Source: a virus
Lineage: Duplodnaviria > Heunggongvirae > Uroviricota > Caudoviricetes
Direction: 5' to 3' (one strand)
Length of the DNA: 42,832 nucleotides
IMG/VR virus record: IMGVR_UViG_2541047913_000006
Numbering within the stretch: position 1 is the stretch's first letter; each line of letters opens with the position of its first letter. The notes beneath the pieces are model-generated. The model had not been told where the DNA came from. It made no database searches and saw nothing but the letters and a program-made list of their open reading frames with translations. A program made the position numbers and the translations under genes. This document shows, piece by piece, positions 9,790 through 20,162 of the stretch.

Positions 9790-10536
9790 ATGAAAAATAT
9801 TGCGACAGGCGACGTTCTTGAACGTATCCGCAGACTGGCCCCGTCACATGTAACCGCGCCATTCAAGACGGTAGCGGAGTGGCGCGAGTGGCAACTTTCC
9901 GAAGGCCAGAAACGTTGTGAGGAGATCAACCGTCAGAATCGTCAGTTGCGGGTGGAAAAAATTCTGAATCGCTCTGGCATCCAGCCATTGCACCGCAAAT
10001 GCTCGTTTTCGAATTACCAGGTGCAGAACGAAGGGCAGCGATACGCGTTGAGTCAGGCGAAATCCATCGCTGATGAACTGATGACCGGGTGTACAAATTT
10101 TGCGTTCAGCGGAAAACCTGGTACCGGGAAGAACCACTTAGCGGCAGCTATCGGGAATCGCCTGCTGAAAGACGGTCAGACAGTGATTGTGGTTACCGTG
10201 GCTGATGTTATGAGTGCCCTGCACGCCAGCTATGACGACGGGCAGTCAGGCGAAAAATTTTTGCGGGAACTGTGCGAAGTGGATCTGCTGGTTCTTGATG
10301 AAATTGGCATTCAGCGCGAGACGAAAAACGAGCAGGTGGTACTGCACCAGATTGTTGATCGCCGGACAGCGTCGATGCGCAGCGTGGGGATGCTGACAAA
10401 CCTGAACTATGAGGCCATGAAAACATTGCTTGGCGAGCGGATTATGGATCGCATGACCATGAACGGCGGGCGATGGGTGAATTTCAACTGGGAGAGCTGG
10501 CGTCCGAATGTCGTCCAGCCAGGAATTGCGAAGTAA
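9790..10536 (+). CDS. ydaV: DnaC/IstB-like helicase loader ATPase (YdaV)
   Basis: Walker [16 protein letters not shown] and Walker [10 protein letters not shown]; 248 aa. Confidence 0.85.
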
Positions 10537-10558
10537 TTTTTACCGGGAGAAAAATTTA

Positions 10559-11308
10559 ATGGAGACTGTTTTTGACGCACTGAAAGCAATGGGAAAAGCC
10601 ACATCCATAGAACTTGCTGCGCGACTTGATATCAGTCGTGAAGCAGTGCTGAACGAACTATGGGAACTGAAAAAAGCTGGTTTCGTTGATAAAAGCGCGT
10701 ACACCTGGCGTGTGGCTGATAACAACGTTCAGCAGGAACAGCCAATGCAGGCAGAACTGCCGGAAGAAACCACCACGGCAACTGTAGTGAAAATCTCAGA
10801 GTGCGATTTAACCGCGACGATTGAACAACGCGGACCACAAACGGCGGATGAACTGGCTACGCTGTTCGGTACAACATCCCGCAAAGTTGCTTCAACGCTG
10901 GCAATGGCAATCAGCAAAGGACGCCTGATTCGCGTAAACCAGAACGGTAAATTTCGTTACTGCATACCGGGCGATAATTTACCAGCAGAGCCGAAAGCTG
11001 CATCGGTAACGGAAACTGATTTTAAAGCCTTTCCTCAGCCAGCAGGTGTTGCGTTACCGGTACAGAAAGATGCAACACAGGAAGATATTAAAACAGAAAC
11101 TGTAGCGGACATTGTGCAGTCGCTGCCATCGTTTACTGCAACGCGAGAAGATGATTTGATTTTGCCATCGCTGCATATGGCAAACCGCGAACTGCGTAGG
11201 GCGAAGAATCATGTCCAGAAGTGGGAGCGAGTCTGCGCCGCGCTGCGGGAGCTGAACAAGCACTGGGATATTGTCCATAAAGTTATTGCAGCAGGTATGG
11301 AGAAATAA
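10559..11308 (+). CDS. ydaW: Winged-helix protein, YdaW-like (full length)
   Basis: Start at [30 protein letters not shown] (RBS GGGAGA upstream); by recollection ydaW is a truncated pseudogene in K-12, but here it is intact. Confidence 0.55.
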
Positions 11309-11561
11309 ATACTCCTGATTATATGAGTCATCCTGCTGCAGTTGTGACCAATATGATCGGTTGTGCAGAGTTCTTCAGATAGGGGTAATGAAAACTGCGG
11401 TGATTTGTATTCGCTGCAGTTAATATAAACTCGTCGAATTTTTTCATGAAATGTGATCTTAGTCATATTTATATCACGTCTATTTATCAGGTTCTGATGA
11501 AATCATCAGGTGTTAAGATACTATTTGTGCTGTCACCTCAATGGGTTAAAAAGGAATCTGG

Positions 11562-12164
11562 ATGAAAGGTAATATTCTTGGGGATATCCGAGCTGAACAT
11601 GACGAAAAGATGTTGGAAGCTTCATTTTGGCAAACAACTGATTATAAAGCTCTTCTCGAATCCTACGATCGATGCATCATTGTTGGCCGCAGAGGAACAG
11701 GAAAAAGTGCTCTGGTGCATATGCTTTCCAAACATTGGCATGCTAAGCCAAAAACCTATGTGATGACTATTAGTCCGGTTGAAGAACAAATTATTGGATT
11801 AAGGGATGTTATTTCTTTATTTGGTGAAAATTACTTACATATAAAAGCCGGTAGCAAGTTAGCATGGCGATATGCTATTTATATGGAGCTGCTTTCTGAG
11901 ATCGCAAGTCATTACAAGATGAAAAACGATCTTGACTACAAAAGTGTAGAGTCGCATTTATTATCTTGGGGACCGAAGAGACAAAATATAAGTAGCAAAA
12001 TAAGAAAAAAATTGAACGCTATTCTCGATGATAACAAAAATATAAAACCAGCTACAAGAATAGCCGAATTATCCGATAAATTTGAACTTGACTTATTGGA
12101 AGAGGTGATAGAAGAAGCAATTTCGAAGTCAAATAATCAATTTGTTATTTTTGCTGATAGGCTT
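11562..12164 (+). pseudogene. P-loop NTPase gene, 3'-truncated by IS1 insertion
   Basis: Walker A CIIVGRRGTGKSALVHML near N-terminus; AT-rich; the reading frame runs into IS1 at 12165, and the last 27 codons of the track ORF (to 12245) are IS1-derived. Confidence 0.6.
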
Positions 12165-12179
12165 GGTAATGACTCCAAC

Positions 12180-12683
12180 TTACTGATAGTGTTTTATGTT
12201 CAGATAATGCCCGATGACCTTGTCATGCAGCTCCACCGATTTTGAGAACGACAGTGACTTCCGTCCCAGCCTTGCCAGATGTTGTCTCAGATTCAGATTA
12301 TGTCGCTCAATGCGCTGAGTGTAACGCTTGCTGATAACGTGCAGCTTTCCCTTCAGGCGTGATTCATACAGCGGCCAGCCATCCGTCATCCATACCACGA
12401 CCTCAAAGGCCGACAGCAGGCTCAGAAGACGCTCCAGTGTGGCCAGAGTGCGTTCACCGAAGACGTGCGCCACAACAGTCCTCCGTATCCTGTCATACGC
12501 GTAAAACAGCCAGCGCTGACGTGATTTAGCACCGACGTAGCCCCACTGTTCGTCCATTTCAGCGCAGACAATCACATCACTGCCCGGTTGTATGCGCGAG
12601 GTTACCGACTGCGGCCTGAGTTTTTTAAGTGACGTAAAACCGTGTTGAGGCCAACGCCCATAATGCGTGCACTGGCGCGACAT
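12180..12683 (-). CDS. insB: IS1 transposase InsB (167 aa)
   Basis: [64 protein letters not shown]... matches IS1 InsB. Confidence 0.9.
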
Positions 12684-12877
12684 CCGACGCCATTCATGGC
12701 CATATCAATGATTTTCTGGTGCGTACCGGGCTGAGAGGCGGTGTAAGTGAACTGTAGTTGCCATGTTTTACGGCAATGAGAGCAGAGATAGCGCTGATGT
12801 CCGGCAGTGCTTTTGCCGTTACGCACCACGCCTTCAGTAGCGGAGCAGGAAGGACATCTGATGGAAATGGAAGCCAC
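12602..12877 (-). CDS. insA: IS1 InsA (91 aa)
   Basis: [68 protein letters not shown]... matches IS1 InsA. Confidence 0.9.
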
Positions 12878-13049
12878 GCAAGCACCTTAAAATCACCATC
12901 ATACACTAAATCAGTAAGTTGGCAGCATTACCCACGCAGACTTTGTGTAAATGTTAACAAATGTGCGTTTTATTTGATCTGATTCGCTGTTTGAGCGTCC
13001 AAAACAACGGTATATATAATCCTTTACTATATGACATATGTGAGGAAAA

Positions 13050-13478
13050 ATGGGTTTTCGTAGCGCATCAATTCTTACGTTGATTATTAGTGGGATTATT
13101 ATCGGGTGCACTGATGCTGTATCGACAAATTATCATGACCGTACATCATATTACTCCGATAAAGCAATAGAGACACAGTATGTGAGTTCATCTGAACGTA
13201 CTTCTGATGTTAGTGAGGATATCCGTCTGTATGCCCATCAAATCAAGAGCGCCATCGAAAAACAGTTCGGGGATGCGAGTAAGTATTCAGGAAAAGAGTG
13301 TACACTGAGAATGCATATGGCCCCGAATGGCCTTCTACTGGAGGTTAAAAGAGAAAGTGGAGACCTCGATTTATGTCGTGAAGCGATGAATGCGATAAAG
13401 AATGCTGATATACCTGCCCCCCCTTCGCCGGAAGTATATAAAGTATTTCAAAATGGGGTGCTGGATTTTAAACCCTGA
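13050..13478 (+). CDS. Lipoprotein with TolA domain-III-like C-terminal domain
   Basis: Signal peptide with lipobox IIGC; C-terminus YAHQIKSAIEKQFGDASKYSGKECTLRMHMAPNGLLLEVKRESGDLDLCREAMNAIKNADIPAPPSPEVYKVFQNGVLDFKP resembles the TolA C-terminal domain as I recall it (...YAGQIKSAIESKFYDASSYAGKTCTLRIKLAPDGMLLDIKPEGGDPALCQAALAAAKLAKIPKPPSQAVYEVFKNAPLDFKP). Confidence 0.7.
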   Translation: MGFRSASILTLIISGIIIGCTDAVSTNYHDRTSYYSDKAIETQYVSSSERTSDVSEDIRLYAHQIKSAIEKQFGDASKYSGKECTLRMHMAPNGLLLEVKRESGDLDLCREAMNAIKNADIPAPPSPEVYKVFQNGVLDFKP

Positions 13479-13628
13479 TATTTATTGTTTTGTAATAAAC
13501 GGTTTCGGCTTAGGTTTGTTCTGACACAGCTACGGCACTGAGCTAAATTTAGCGGATAGTCAGCTCTGAGCCAGTGGCGGACGTAACAACTACTATTGCT
13601 GAGATTTTAATGGATTGAGGAGCAAGAA

Positions 13629-14024
13629 GTGGGATTAAAGAAAATCGTTATGTTGACTTTTTGGGTCGGTTTTGTTGCGGGATGCACACCTTTACACCCT
13701 TCAGATTGCCACAAAACTACTGCTACAGGTAGTTGCAGTTCAGGACGCTGGGATGATCAGGATGAATGGGGGGCGCAAGCGCGGGGAATCAGAGCTGCAA
13801 TTAATGCCAAACTTGATGAGCCGCATAACTGGAAAGGGAAAAAATGCAGGTTGCATATGGAATTCTCTCAGGATGGCACGGCGTTAAAAATATCTACCAG
13901 TAACGGTGATAAAGCCTATTGCGAAGCGATAAAGTCCGCAGCTCATAAAGCCAAATTTCCGGCCTTCAACAATCCGGAAGTCTACAGAGATTTTCAGAAA
14001 TCTGGCTTTGACATGCGAGGTTAG
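13629..14024 (+). CDS. Lipoprotein, divergent paralogue of the TolA-III-like lipoprotein
   Basis: GTG start with RBS GAGGA; lipobox VAGC; C-terminal KKCRLHMEFSQDGTALKISTSNGDKAYCEAIKSAAHKAKFPAFNNPEVYRDFQKSGFDM aligns with the upstream paralogue and TolA-III. Confidence 0.6.
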   Translation: MGLKKIVMLTFWVGFVAGCTPLHPSDCHKTTATGSCSSGRWDDQDEWGAQARGIRAAINAKLDEPHNWKGKKCRLHMEFSQDGTALKISTSNGDKAYCEAIKSAAHKAKFPAFNNPEVYRDFQKSGFDMRG

Positions 14025-14149
14025 CTCTTCAATTACTATATCTCATTCATAGCAAACTGACAGATTTGATGATGTTCTATATACGAAACCTGTGATGTCA
14101 AGTCTGAGCTAATACAAATAAACATAATATCAGAGAAATACATTTTATT

Positions 14150-14172
14150 AGCTCGCTACGGCGAGCTTTTTA
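14150..14172 (+). terminator. Intrinsic terminator (possible tR'-like, or terminator of the lipoprotein operon)
   Basis: Hairpin AGCTCGC-TACG-GCGAGCT followed by TTTTT, about 100 nt upstream of the holin start. Confidence 0.45.
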
Positions 14173-14275
14173 TATTGCATCGTCTCCAGCATATATATCA
14201 ATTAAGGCTCTGATTGATGTGTCTGAAAGCCTACACATAATAACTATGCCATCCGTTCCGTGCGGAGGTGAGGCT

Positions 14276-14491
14276 ATGAAATCCATGGACAAAATTTCAA
14301 CAGGCATTGCCTACGGCACCTCCGCAGGCAGTGCTGGCTACTGGTTTTTACAGTTGCTCGATAGAGTAACTCCGTCACAGTGGGCTGCAATCGGTGTGCT
14401 GGGTAGTCTGGTATTTGGCCTACTGACGTACCTGACAAACCTTTATTTCAAGATTAAAGAAGATAAGCGCAAGGCTGCGAGAGGTGAATAA
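14276..14491 (+). CDS. Holin (class II, EssD/S21-like, 71 aa)
   Basis: [71 protein letters not shown]; two TM segments; dual-start motif MKSM; RBS GGAGGTGAG; 1-nt overlap (TAATG) with endolysin. Confidence 0.8.
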
Positions 14492-14988
14492 TGCCTCCAT
14501 CATTACGAAAAGTCGTTGCTGCTGCTATTGGTGGCGGAGCAATTGCTATAGCATCAGTGTTAATCACTGGCCCAAGTGGTAACGATGGTCTGGAAGGTGT
14601 CAGCTACATACCATACAAAGATATTGTTGGTGTATGGACTGTATGTCACGGGCATACAGTAAAAGACATCATGCTCGGTAAAACGTATACCAAAGCAGAA
14701 TGCAAAACACTCTTGAATAAAGACCTTGCCACGGTCGCCAGACAAATTAACCCGTACATCAAAGTCGATATACCGGAAACAACGCGCGGCGCTCTTTACT
14801 CATTCGTTTACAACGTGGGTGCTGGCAATTTCAGAACATCGACGCTTCTTCGCAAAATAAACCAGGGCGATATCAAAGGCGCATGTGATCAGCTACGTCG
14901 CTGGACATATGCTGGCGGTAAGCAATGGAAAGGTCTCATGACTCGTCGTGAGATTGAGCGTGAAATCTGTTTGTGGGGTCAGCAATGA
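14491..14988 (+). CDS. SAR endolysin (GH24 lysozyme, R21/RrrD-like)
   Basis: 165 aa; N-terminal Gly/Ala-rich signal-anchor-release segment ([20 protein letters not shown]); lysozyme motifs (EG..Y.PY.D..G..T.G.GHT). Confidence 0.85.
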
Positions 14989-15286: not shown

Positions 15287-15316
15287 TGATCCTACCCACG
15301 TAATATGGACACAGGC

Positions 15317-16183
15317 CTAAGCGAGGTTCTTGTTTTCAAATTGTTCCGGACTGAGGCCGCCACACCAACTGTGCCGCCGCCACCGATTGTAATCACATTC
15401 GATATAATTAAACACCGTTGCCCGCATTATTTCCCGGCTGATAAAGTGTTCTCCATGGATACATTCCACTTTCAGCGAATGAAAGAAGCTTTCCACGCAG
15501 GCATTATCGTAGCAGCAACCTTTTGCGCTCATACTTCCACGCAGATTATGCCGCTTCAGTTGCGCCTGATAATCTGCTGAACAGTACTGGCCTCCACGGT
15601 CCGTGTGAACGATAACGTTCCGGGGCCTCTTACGCCGCCACAGCGCCATCTGCAGGGCATCGCAGGCCAGTTGCGCCGTCATGCGTGGCGACATTGACCA
15701 GCCAATAACGGCACGTGACCACAGGTCAATGACCACTGCCAGATACAGCCAGCCTTCATCTGTACGTAAGTACGTGATGTCTCCTGCCCACTTCTGGTTC
15801 GGGCCACTGGCGTAAAAATCCTGCTCCAACAGATTTTCTGACACAGGCAGGCCGTGTGCGCGGTAGCTGACCGGGCTGAACTTCCGGGAGGCCTTTGCCC
15901 TCAGTCCCTGACGGCGCAGGCTTGCCGCCACGGTTTTTACGTTAAAGGGGTAACCCTGAGCACGCAGTTCATCCGTCAGGCGTGGGGCACCGTAACGCTG
16001 TTTTGACCGGGTAAAAGCCGCGAGGACAACGCTGTCGCAGTGTTGGCGGAACTGCTGACGCGTGCTTATCCTTGTCCGCCGCTGACACCACGTATACCAG
16101 CCGCTGCGGGCCACCCGGAGCACGCGGCACATTGCTTTGATGCTGAACTCAGCCTGATGTTTTTCAATAAAGACATACTTCAT
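15317..16183 (-). CDS. insF: IS3 transposase OrfB (InsF, 288 aa)
   Basis: DDE integrase-type transposase, [32 protein letters not shown]...; matches IS3 InsF. Confidence 0.9.
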
Positions 16184-16479
16184 TTCAGGCGCTTCGCGAA
16201 GTATGTCGCGGCCTTTTGGAGGATAGCCAGCTCTTCATCCCGTTCTGCCAGCTGGCGTTTGAGACGTGCAATCTCGGTAGACATCTCCAGTTCACGTTCA
16301 GAAGACGTCTGCTGATTTTGCTGTTTACTGCGCCAGTTGTAGAGTTGTGATTCATACAGGCTGAGTTCACGGGCTGCGGCAGTAACACCGATGCGTTCAG
16401 CAAGCTTCAGGGCTTCACTGCGAAATTCAGGCGAATGCTGTTTACGGGGTTTTTTACTGGTTGATACTGTTTTTGTCAT
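16180..16479 (-). CDS. insE: IS3 OrfA (InsE, 99 aa)
   Basis: [32 protein letters not shown]...; HTH; overlaps insF as expected for -1 frameshift fusion. Confidence 0.85.
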
Positions 16480-16544
16480 GTGAGTCACCTCTGACTGAGA
16501 GTTTACTCACTTAGCCGCGTGTCCACTATTGCTGGGTAAGATCA

Positions 16545-18442: not shown

Positions 18443-19237
18443 ATGAGCGAGAAATTAAAGATAGTCTATCGCCCATTACAAGAATTGTCACCGTATGCGC
18501 ACAACGCCAGGACGCACAGTACTGAGCAGGTGGCACAACTGGTAGAAAGTATTAAGCAATTCGGCTGGACTAATCCGGTGCTGATTGACGAAAAGGGCGA
18601 AATTATTGCGGGTCACGGTCGTGTTATGGCGGCTGAAATGCTCAAAATGGATTCTGTTCCGGTCATTGTTCTGTCTGGCCTGACGGATGAGCAGAAAAAG
18701 GCGTACCGCCTGGCAGATAATCGCCTGCCGATGAATGCTGGCTGGGATGAAGATCTGTTGCGGATGGAGCTGTCGGACCTAATCAATGCTGATTTTGATG
18801 TCTCCCTGACAGGCTTCATCCCGACAGAAATTGATGAACTGTTGACGGATGTTTTGCCCGGTACAGGAAATGAGGAGGAGCCGTATACGACGAAAATTGA
18901 TACGCCTGTTTATGAGCCGTCGGGCGGTAAACCGGATATCAGTGAACTGTACGACGATACGAAAACTCAGGAGCTGATCAGCCGGATACGTTCGGCGTCC
19001 CTTGATCCTGATATTGAGAAATTCCTCCTGTGTGCGGCAGAACGTCACACAGTGTTTAATTTCAGCAGAATTGCGGACTATTACGCTCATGCCCCCGCTG
19101 AAATTCAGTGCCTTTTCGAGGAGTCGGCGCTGGTGATCATTGATTATCAGCAGGCTATTGAAAATGGATTTGTCCGAATGACGCAGCGCATGGTGGAGAT
19201 CATGCATGGCGGGGAGGAGGAGGAGGAATATGCGTGA
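18443..19237 (+). CDS. ParB-like nuclease domain protein (full-length YnaK-like)
   Basis: 264 aa; ParB/Srx N-terminal domain with GHGR motif (GEIIAGHGRVMAA); acidic C-terminal tail GGEEEEEYA; position after trkG as ynaK in K-12 Rac. Confidence 0.7.
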   Translation: MSEKLKIVYRPLQELSPYAHNARTHSTEQVAQLVESIKQFGWTNPVLIDEKGEIIAGHGRVMAAEMLKMDSVPVIVLSGLTDEQKKAYRLADNRLPMNAGWDEDLLRMELSDLINADFDVSLTGFIPTEIDELLTDVLPGTGNEEEPYTTKIDTPVYEPSGGKPDISELYDDTKTQELISRIRSASLDPDIEKFLLCAAERHTVFNFSRIADYYAHAPAEIQCLFEESALVIIDYQQAIENGFVRMTQRMVEIMHGGEEEEEYA

Positions 19238-20162
19238 TGATTTTTGCGCCTTTATTCTGACTCACGGGCGACCGGACAAAGTTCTGACTTACCGGACGTT
19301 GCGTCGTGCTGGCTATACCGGGAAAATTTTTATCGTTGTTGATGATGAAGATAAGACACGGCATCAGTACATGGCTGAATTTGGTGAACAGGTGCTGGTA
19401 TTTTCCAAAGCCGATATTGCCAGTCGTTTTGACGAAGCCGATAATTTTGGTGATCGCCGCTCAATTTTTTACGCCCGTAATGCCTGTTTCGACCTGGCAA
19501 AACTGGTCGGGTGTAAATACTTCATTCAGCTCGATGATGATTATCACGAGTTCCAGTTTCGGGTGGATCGCAACTATGACCAGGCCTATTTCCCGATAAG
19601 GAAACTGGATGCGATCCTTTCTGAAATGCTGGCGTATTACGAATCAATACCCGCGCTTTCCATCGCTATGTCGCAGGGCGGGGATTTTCTTGGTGACAAT
19701 GGCGGCCATGCTTCGTGGGTGAAACGCAAGGCAATGAACAGCTTTATCTGTTCGGTTGATCGACCGTTCTCATTCATGGGGCGCATTAACGAGGATGTGA
19801 ATACGTACACGAATCTCGGTCGCTGTGGTGAATTGTTTATGACGATCGGTGCTGTCCAGTTAGGGCAGAAACAGACGCAGAAAAACAGCGGCGGAATGAC
19901 CGAGCTGTATCTGGATTCCGGAACCTACGTTAAAAGTTTTTACTCCGTCATGTATTCGCCGTCGTGCGTAAAAATCTCACTGATGGGTGCCAGCCATAAA
20001 CGCATTCACCATCAGGTCACCTGGAACAACGCTGCAGTAAAAATCCTTCACGAAAAATACAGGAAGAAGACACCCTGCATATCAATGGGGGTGACAAATG
20101 ATTCCGTATTCGAAAGTCGAGTCTCTGGCAGCGTGCCGGATGACTGCACAACAAATCGCTGA
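19230..20162 (+). CDS. Hypothetical protein, possible GT-A-like fold (full-length YdaY-like)
   Basis: Start at ATG 19230 with RBS GGAGGAGG, 8-nt overlap with the ParB-like gene; N-terminal FILTHGRPDKVLTYRTL...IFIVVDDEDK and DxD-like motif IQLDDDYHEF; function not established. Confidence 0.5.
   Translation: MRDDFCAFILTHGRPDKVLTYRTLRRAGYTGKIFIVVDDEDKTRHQYMAEFGEQVLVFSKADIASRFDEADNFGDRRSIFYARNACFDLAKLVGCKYFIQLDDDYHEFQFRVDRNYDQAYFPIRKLDAILSEMLAYYESIPALSIAMSQGGDFLGDNGGHASWVKRKAMNSFICSVDRPFSFMGRINEDVNTYTNLGRCGELFMTIGAVQLGQKQTQKNSGGMTELYLDSGTYVKSFYSVMYSPSCVKISLMGASHKRIHHQVTWNNAAVKILHEKYRKKTPCISMGVTNDSVFESRVSGSVPDDCTTNR

Follow-up and report, generated by a model that had tools for sequence, protein, structure and literature searches.

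An IS1-associated deletion has very probably removed the Q antiterminator module from a Rac-family lambdoid prophage

Gene content of the interval between the replication genes and the holin

The window, that is the whole stretch of 42,832 nucleotides analysed here (IMG/VR record IMGVR_UViG_2541047913_000006), follows the gene order of Rac-family prophages: intR, recET, kilR, sieB, repressor, a ydaT-like gene, ydaU-V-W, lysis genes, trkG and structural genes. The features around the interval from ydaV/ydaW to the holin are listed in Table 1. The ydaW-like gene corresponds to the annotation at 8250-8999 of L003, from the annotated Rac-family prophage of E. coli H10, and its DUF1627 product has a winged-helix-like N-terminal region. 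The ORF of the P-loop ATPase runs from 11562 to 12245, its final 27 codons and its stop lying in IS1, while the full-length gene of H10 (L003 9253-11322) codes for 689 aa. The IS1 element exhibits the Pfam domains DDE_Tnp_IS1, HTH_Tnp_IS1 and Zn_ribbon_InsA, and its termini are GGTAATGAC...GCATTACC. In the window the holin now has neither Q nor a late promoter 5' of it, and a further lesion, the IS3 that splits Rz, also disables the late region.

Table 1 Features of the window from ydaV to the Rz gene.
Feature	Position	Strand	Remarks
ydaV, DnaC/IstB-like replication ATPase	9790..10536	+	Pfam IstB_IS21, E 9e-20; named ydaV by the H10 annotation; left landmark
ydaW-like DUF1627 gene	10559..11308 (H10 annotation; ORF 10508-11308)	+	Pfam DUF1627, E 1e-93; intact
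Sll1717-family P-loop ATPase, 5' 201 codons	11562..12164	+	Gene cut by IS1; weak AAA/STAND Pfam matches
IS1, 768 bp	12165..12932	-	Both terminal inverted repeats; insA and insB present
Leader remnant of the lipoprotein cassette, 117 bp	12933..13049	+	Includes the final ~8 nt of the STnc100 homologue
Promoter-like site	12991-13020	+	TTGAGC-18-TATAAT; consensus match only
TolA C-terminal domain lipoprotein 1	13050..13478	+	Pfam TolA, E 2.4e-23; lipobox IIGC
TolA C-terminal domain lipoprotein 2	13629..14024	+	Pfam TolA, E 1.3e-14; lipobox VAGC; annotated start (H10) 13650
Intrinsic-terminator-like hairpin and T run	14150..14172	+	3' end of the putative lipoprotein moron
S21-type holin, essD-like	14276..14491	+	Pfam Phage_holin_2_1, E 4.5e-35; H10 annotation; opens the lysis cassette
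IS3, 1258 bp, in the Rz/spanin gene	15287..16544	-	3-bp target duplication GTC

Search for a Q gene

An earlier note on this DNA had described the interval as holding a truncated ATPase, IS1 and two lipoproteins, with no Q. A Pfam scan of all stop-to-stop ORFs down to a length of 30 aa, on either strand between 10400 and 14400, confirmed this content, returning DUF1627, weak AAA-type matches, the IS1 InsA/InsB domains, TolA and the holin, and nothing else. The same note had proposed a profile search for Q-like families in the ORFs around 10.5-14.3 kb; no Q family was matched, PF06530, PF06323, PF03589 and PF06576 giving no match at E <= 0.05 in the scanned ORFs. Over the whole window, searches with the DUF1133 Q, Q21-type Q, lambda Q and mEp460 Q (tblastn, hmmsearch and phmmer) and with irsA and ybcO (tblastn) gave only noise. 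Neither the ORFs lying from trkG to the terminase nor the early left operon yielded any other regulator family. The earlier observation that neither Q nor N is visible is thus confirmed for Q. Its mention of N is beside the point: N sits in the leftward early operon, so that no lambdoid phage would be expected to have it in this interval, and its absence there carries no information.

IS1 stands in place of a 4.5-kb segment of the H10 prophage

Comparison with intact relatives, also proposed in the earlier note, located irsA-ybcO-q (DUF1133) in the H10 prophage, which adjoins ttcA, at the place where the window has IS1. The two prophages are collinear: window 1-12165 matches H10 L004 7825-19989 with 99.992% identity, 12931-15286 matches L004 24499-26854 with 99.87%, and 16542-38688 matches L004 26849-49001 with 99.57%. 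They differ by the IS3 in Rz and by the IS1, which replaces about 4.51 kb of H10 (L003 9857-14366). The missing sequence begins exactly at the IS1 ends, between flanks that are 99.87-99.99% identical, and through IS1 codon 201 of the ATPase gene is now connected directly with the position 117 bp 5' of the first lipoprotein gene. The H10 annotation of this segment comprises the remainder of the Sll1717 ATPase, a Hok/Gef remnant, DUF1367, DUF1364 and DUF1133; the segment also spans most of the spacer between q and the lipoprotein genes, including an STnc100 sRNA homologue. IS1 interrupts two elements midway, the ATPase ORF and the STnc100 homologue; the remaining ATPase fragment is 100% identical in 40 E. 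coli genomes, the identity ending at base 12164/12165. The IS1 has no 8-9 bp target duplication, its left flank being GATAGGCTT and its right flank CACGCAGAC.

These data support the earlier suggestion that the IS1 event had removed Q, since H10, 99.99% identical, has irsA-ybcO-q and a putative late promoter exactly at the IS1 site, the target duplication is missing and the ATPase gene is cut mid-ORF. The same loss separates the window from two other carriers of a DUF1133-type q, Rac-SA53 (KU052037) and phage Rac (MN652886). Like H10, these share with the window the integrase, recET, kilR, sieB, immunity region and ydaU-V-W, as well as the lysis cassette, trkG and structural genes. Unlike in these prophages, there is no hok', irsA, ybcO, q, putative pR'/tR' or STnc100 homologue in the window, which has IS1 in the place of the lost genes and IS3 in Rz.

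The reverse polarity, in which the window would be ancestral and the H10-type prophages would have gained the 4.5-kb q segment, is formally conceivable, the nin-equivalent region being mosaic among Rac-family phages. It is already refuted by the ATPase ORF, which retains only 201 of the 689 codons, counted from its 5' end, and runs out within IS1; IS1 moreover lies exactly at the discontinuity without target duplication, and no late activator would have served the lysis and structural genes. We give this reading practically no weight.

We also considered that two IS1 copies flanking an intact 4.5-kb q segment had been collapsed into one during assembly. IS1 is a high-copy element (median of 10-16 matching places per E. 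coli genome), and the exact junction seen here is absent from the 5,426 complete E. coli assemblies examined. Such an artefact would however need two IS1 copies of the same orientation at precisely these sites, each without duplication on its outer side. IS1 is present at neither site in any relative, and the window is otherwise clean and colinear, with a normal IS3 insertion and its target duplication. A collapsed assembly is accordingly very unlikely. Strain NCTC9112, taken up as a candidate for sharing the junction between IS1 and the lipoprotein cassette, was rejected, its IS1 sitting elsewhere.

Two routes could have produced the deletion, an intramolecular transposition of IS1 (adjacent deletion) and recombination of one IS1 copy with another. 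Both routes would leave the same product, a single intact IS1 exactly at the junction without target duplication. None of the 5,426 complete E. coli assemblies has IS1 simply inserted at the right-hand breakpoint: a synthetic junction built for such an insertion was covered to less than 80% in every record. With no intermediate found that would show the order of events, the two routes are indistinguishable.

DUF1133 proteins are related to the Q of phage 21

The DUF1133 gene is annotated as q in Rac-SA53 and in phage Rac, and DUF1133 has been designated Q via HHpred (PMC8136144). In our searches the DUF1133 protein matched the Pfam family PF06530 (Phage_antitermQ) with 26.1 bits for a cutoff of 26 (E 8.6e-6). 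Its best PDB match was Q21 (6P18 and 6JNX), with a marginal phmmer match of the N-terminal part only (E 0.3). As this match was insufficient alone, a profile-profile comparison was used: hhalign of the DUF1133 alignment against the Q21-type alignment gave a probability of 98.5% and an E-value of 2.4e-15 over 136 columns spanning both proteins. Judged by these alignments, the DUF1133 proteins are full-length homologues of phage 21 Q, from which they differ by an insertion of about 29 residues.

Putative late control elements downstream of q

The region downstream of q was compared in seven phages with a DUF1133 gene, from the genera Escherichia, Klebsiella, Providencia and Edwardsiella. All seven have a TTGnnn hexamer at the q stop codon or close to it (in the Klebsiella phage 26 nt upstream, within q), followed 34-35 nt 3' by a TAnG(C/A)T element and, about 45-60 nt further on, by a hairpin with a T run in six of them; in Rac-SA53 the alignment exhibits only a degraded hairpin. 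In H10 the element reads TATGCT (L003 13470-13475), and the hairpin occupies L003 13523-13543, 84 to 104 nt beyond the q stop codon, whose last base is 13439. The layout is shared with phage 21: in both groups a TTGAnn hexamer at the Q stop codon is followed 34-36 nt downstream by TAnGCT and then by a terminator. It recurs in two of three other Q21-type phages, the offset in these and in phage 21 being 35-36 nt. The phage 21 record annotates a promoter and a 50-nt RNA (aRNA). The hairpin is found at +84 to +108 after the stop codon in most DUF1133 phages and at +53 to +70 in Klebsiella, compared to +64 to +81 in phage 21. By analogy with phage 21, we infer that the three elements correspond to pR', its sigma-dependent pause element and tR'. 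The hairpin was clearer by folding each sequence than by RNAalifold, which on loosely cut segments gave a weak consensus of 6 pairs, 3 of them with double changes. Annotators may read DUF1133 as a Q21-class antiterminator whose stop codon is adjoined by its putative promoter, pause element and terminator.

The putative pR' of the relatives was missed by a simple promoter scan, because its -10 is without the required A2; the scan gave instead a separate promoter/terminator pair at H10 L003 13811-13895.

In the window the late promoter, the promoter-proximal -10-like pause element and tR' are absent, the homologous region of H10 (L003 13436-13545) being deleted.

The lipoprotein cassette and the hairpin at 14150

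The earlier note had proposed that the hairpin at 14150-14172 could be a tR'-like attenuator or the terminator of the lipoprotein genes. The stem-loop (14150-14167, AGCTCGCTACGGCGAGCT) is followed by TTTTTATATT and has 7 pairs, 5 of them G-C; its 56-nt context folds with -13.8 kcal/mol (z = -2.6 versus shuffles). One terminator-like site was found in 12900-14500 for 1.3 expected, a count not above chance. The hairpin is identical in all relatives and in phage mEp460_ev081, and other phages that carry 21-type lysis genes become homologous only 3' of it, from about 14237-14265 on. Because the hairpin lies inside an apparently mobile cassette and the 21-type homology begins only 3' of it, it is better described as the presumed terminator of the lipoprotein moron than as a promoter-proximal tR'. 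In the relatives, the tR'-like element is found some 85-105 nt beyond the q stop codon; the window has lost it. In the intact phage, Q-modified polymerase would have to read through the 14150 hairpin.

The 12933-13049 leader is 100% identical in mEp460_ev081, a phage in which this cassette follows a lambda-type Q. Of the 774 genomes in which the lipoprotein cassette occurs, only 453 have a DUF1133 q directly upstream, so the cassette can sit behind other Q types. Given this proportion, the present copy could in principle have had a different history, against which the 99.99% identical flanks and the mid-gene truncation argue strongly. PADLOC gave no match for the cassette, and a literature search on TolA-like prophage lipoproteins found nothing relevant. 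Like the morons between Q and S, such as stx in Stx phages and eplBA in Rac-SA53, the TolA-like pair lies between Q and the holin, with a promoter-like and a terminator-like site of its own, each a consensus match. The pair seems to behave as a mobile cassette of the Q-to-holin interval, accompanied by an STnc100-type RNA.

These sites bear on the other possibility raised in the earlier note, that late-gene control is unconventional, a Q-type antiterminator never having been needed here and another activator or read-through serving in its place. No Q-like ORF is present anywhere in the window, and the promoter-like site at 12991-13020 could feed some transcription toward the holin. However, the terminator-like hairpin lies between this site and the holin, the ORFs from trkG to the terminase and the early left operon offer no alternative regulator family, and irsA-ybcO-q lies upstream of the lysis genes in all Rac-family phages sampled. 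A 99.99% identical relative carries q exactly at the IS1 site, and IS1 interrupts the ATPase ORF and the STnc100 homologue mid-element. Comparison with the relatives therefore largely refutes unconventional control, which we consider extremely unlikely. Because the intact members have a Q21-homologous Q together with a putative phage-21-like promoter, pause element and terminator, late control in the family is presumably conventional, and the copy in the window is crippled by ordinary prophage decay.

Probable loss of the late control region

It is thus very probable that a Rac-family lambdoid prophage lost its Q antiterminator module through an IS1-associated deletion. The ancestor, represented by the near-identical H10 prophage, would have had the order ydaV - ydaW - P-loop ATPase - hok remnant - irsA (DUF1367) - ybcO (DUF1364) - q (DUF1133), then the late promoter, pause site and terminator, the STnc100-like RNA and the two TolA-like lipoprotein genes, and from the lysis region on holin - endolysin - Rz - trkG - terminase. 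The deletion would have taken both Q and its target promoter with the pause site, and therefore no Q-dependent late transcription of the lysis and structural genes would take place. The only plausible signals left upstream would be the promoter-like site of the cassette and the terminator at 14150-14172, and the prophage presumably cannot run its late programme. For annotation, it should be called defective (no late activator, no late promoter, split Rz); its structural gene set is nearly complete despite the defect, and a flag of unusual late regulation is unwarranted.

Instead of neutral decay, the loss of q and pR' might be a selected domestication, the host keeping trkG and the lipoprotein cassette along with lysis and structural genes that are still largely intact; all these genes would gain a new low-level or conditionally regulated use from residual Q-independent transcription, starting at the promoter-like site of the cassette or coming out of IS1 and passing through the 14150 hairpin. 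We regard such selection as very improbable.

The cryptic Rac prophage of E. coli K-12 is not known to carry q either. In that prophage a deletion joins a ydaW remnant to an rzpR remnant, and most structural genes are also gone, as are the holin and the endolysin. K-12 Rac would thus be another Rac copy without the late control region; unlike it, the window retains the holin, the endolysin and the structural genes, and its lesion is IS1-associated.

Absence of Q from the window

The earlier note had placed only a truncated ATPase gene, IS1 and two lipoprotein genes between ydaW and the holin, an inventory that the ORF listing and Pfam bear out (see table). A Pfam scan of all stop-to-stop ORFs in 10400-14400 (both strands, 30 aa or longer) returned DUF1627, AAA-type, IS1, TolA and holin families and nothing else, with no Q family at E <= 0.05. 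Searches of the whole window for the late-gene antiterminator Q by tblastn, with DUF1133 and Q21-type profile HMMs, and by phmmer with lambda Q and mEp460 Q gave noise only, the top match (27.7 bits, E 0.008) lying within the tape-measure gene. Neither irsA (DUF1367) nor ybcO (DUF1364) was found in the whole window by tblastn, and the trkG-to-terminase ORFs and the first leftward-operon ORFs contained no late-gene regulator or N-like product. The scan and the whole-window searches confirm that Q is missing from the ydaW-to-holin interval, a genuine loss that an ordinary IS1-associated deletion in a decaying Rac-family prophage accounts for.

Features of the ydaV-holin interval and segments of the window collinear with E. 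coli H10 (L004, coordinates of the H10 prophage region)
Feature	Window	Strand	Details
ydaV	9790-10536		IstB/DnaC-like (ORF listing, Pfam)
DUF1627 ydaW-like gene	to 11308		ORF listing, Pfam
ORF	11562-12245		Weak P-loop/STAND-type matches only (ORF listing, Pfam)
IS1	12165-12932	minus	768 bp, both inverted repeats, insA/insB
First TolA C-terminal domain protein	13050-13478		Lipobox (Pfam)
Second TolA C-terminal domain protein	13629/13650-14024		Lipobox (Pfam)
S21-type holin	14276 (annotated start)
Collinear segment	1-12165		L004 7825-19989, 99.992% identity
Collinear segment	12931-15286		L004 24499-26854, 99.87% identity
Collinear segment	16542-38688		L004 26849-49001, 99.57% identity

An IS1-associated deletion

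The annotated order in H10 is ydaV, DUF1627, a 689-aa Sll1717-family P-loop ATPase, a Hok/Gef remnant, DUF1367, DUF1364, DUF1133, a 1,046-bp spacer, two TolA-like genes, essD, rrrD, Rz and trkG. The window differs from it structurally by two IS elements only, IS1 and IS3. IS1 replaces L003 9857-14366 of H10 (L003, another set of H10 coordinates; about 4.51 kb, endpoints ambiguous by 1-2 bases); GATAGGCTT and CACGCAGAC, the sequences on either side of it, do not form a duplication, which rules out a simple insertion and therefore indicates an IS1-associated deletion, arising either as an adjacent deletion or by recombination between two IS1 copies. The proposal that the IS1 event removed Q was thus right: H10 carries DUF1367-DUF1364-DUF1133 where the window has the duplication-less IS1. 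The same three genes are present in all the other Rac-like prophages and phages compared (A14, ECZP248, NCTC9112, vB_EcoS-673R7, Rac-SA53 and phage Rac), upstream of the lysis cassette in all except phage Rac, whose record is an 8-kb fragment ending just past q.

The ATPase fragment is matched at 100%, up to the first IS1 base, in 40 of 5,426 complete E. coli genomes, H10 among them; neither the IS1 junction of the window nor a simple IS1 insertion at the right-hand site was found in any of the 5,426. Judged by this collection, only the source strain has undergone the event. The late region bears a second, independent lesion, a 1,258-bp IS3 (15287-16544, 3-bp duplication GTC) inside the Rz/spanin gene.

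DUF1133 and late control in the relatives

DUF1133 matches Pfam PF06530 (Phage_antitermQ) at a borderline 26.1 bits (cutoff 26), and its top match among PDB sequences is phage 21 Q, at only E 0.3. An alignment of six DUF1133 proteins, drawn from phages of Escherichia, Klebsiella, Providencia and Edwardsiella, was compared profile to profile with one of four Q21-type proteins, phage 21 Q among them (probability 98.5%, E 2.4e-15, 136 columns). The match takes in residues 13-177 of DUF1133 and 5-153 of Q21, interrupted by a single insertion of about 29 residues. The gene is named q in GenBank records of others, and a survey of Stx phages saw DUF1133 as Q via HHpred (PMC8136144). By homology, we regard DUF1133 as a putative Q21-class antiterminator.

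Directly 3' of the q stop codon, all seven DUF1133 phages share a layout. First comes a TTGnnn hexamer, placed at the stop codon or close to it; the Klebsiella phage, in which Q is extended at its C-terminus, has it 26 nt upstream and within q. A TA(N)G(C/A)T element begins 34-35 nt downstream of the hexamer, and a G+C-rich hairpin with a T run stands about 45-60 nt past this element. Stem sequences vary while pairing is kept; per-sequence folding found the hairpin and T run in six of the seven, Rac-SA53 having only a degraded hairpin visible in the alignment. The arrangement recurs in phage 21 and in two of the three remaining Q21-type phages (TTGACA, TAAGCT/TACGCT 35-36 nt later, then a hairpin), and the phage 21 record annotates a promoter and a 50-nt terminated RNA. 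By analogy, H10 would have its late promoter pR' around L003 13436-13464, its -10-like pause element at 13470-13475 and its terminator tR', a hairpin plus T run, around 13523-13551. This putative module falls entirely within the segment deleted from the window. We infer that late control in the Rac family is conventional and Q21-like; unconventional control, offered as the other explanation of the missing Q, is not supported.

The deleted segment also included, at L003 13811-13895 and about 370 bp past q, another promoter-like site (AAGACA-18-TATAAT) with a strong terminator-like hairpin, AACCGCCTGTTTAGGCGGTT, and a T run some 30 nt further on; the pair could represent a small RNA gene or be left over from a different late-promoter module. 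tRNA-like sequences were seen by eye at L008 1320-1503 (phage 21) and L011 about 1350-1460 (Edwardsiella phage GF-2). They come after a short terminated leader downstream of the Q21-type gene, as in Stx phages, whereas in Rac-type relatives an STnc100 homologue and the lipoprotein cassette occupy this position.

The lipoprotein cassette and its hairpin

Of the sequence leading up to the first lipoprotein gene, 117 bp remain in the window, including a promoter-like site (12991-13020, TTGAGC-18-TATAAT, 10/12 consensus match). One terminator-like site lies at 14150-14167 with its T run (56-nt context, -13.8 kcal/mol, z = -2.6). The earlier note had suggested that the hairpin at 14150-14172 could be a tR'-like attenuator or simply the terminator of the lipoprotein genes. 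Phage mEp460_ev081 has the block L003 14197-15927 at 96.8% identity, there behind a 273-aa Q with a lambda Q-like N-terminus; the block runs from the STnc100 homologue and promoter-like site through both lipoprotein genes and the hairpin to the holin. The many other 21-type holin phages are homologous only from about 14237-14265 onwards, past the hairpin. This assigns the hairpin to the cassette, and it is best read as the cassette's terminator, which Q-modified polymerase would override in the intact phage. Promoter-like site and hairpin are identical across all relatives, so that their conservation gives no covariation evidence.

The complete cassette occurs in 774 of the 5,426 genomes and the contiguous q-to-tolA block in 453. 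The tandem TolA C-terminal domain lipoproteins (13050-14024) form a mobile cassette in the Q-to-holin position, and relatives of the second gene, about 87% identical, occur on several hundred plasmid records, O157 plasmids included. The pair had no defence-database match and nothing was found on it in the literature; a role as decoy for TolA-binding colicins or filamentous phages is speculation.

Other cargo

Just upstream of the cassette in H10, L003 14188-14374 is a full-length match to Rfam STnc100 (RF02076, 86.6 bits), of which about 8 nt (12933-12940) are left in the window, the rest being lost to the IS1 deletion. The homologue moves with the cassette into mEp460_ev081, and two 30-nt stretches of it also match Klebsiella phage 1 LV-2017, in the interval that separates the q-TciA genes from the gene after them (putative membrane protein). 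A 2026 preprint ties STnc100 to prophage PasD sRNAs near Q genes.

The truncated ATPase (11562-12164) corresponds to the full 689-aa gene at L003 9253-11322, in the variable nin-equivalent region, a gene that only the 40 genomes above carry. It has weak partial PADLOC matches (PDC-M36A, E 3e-11) and may have served as cargo for anti-phage defence, now inactivated in the window. Between trkG and the small terminase gene (18443-20162), a 264-aa ParB_N-domain protein that is intact in the window (its H10 counterpart is a pseudogene) is paired with a TET-associated glycosyltransferase (TAGT, E 6e-35), which suggests a DNA-modification function.
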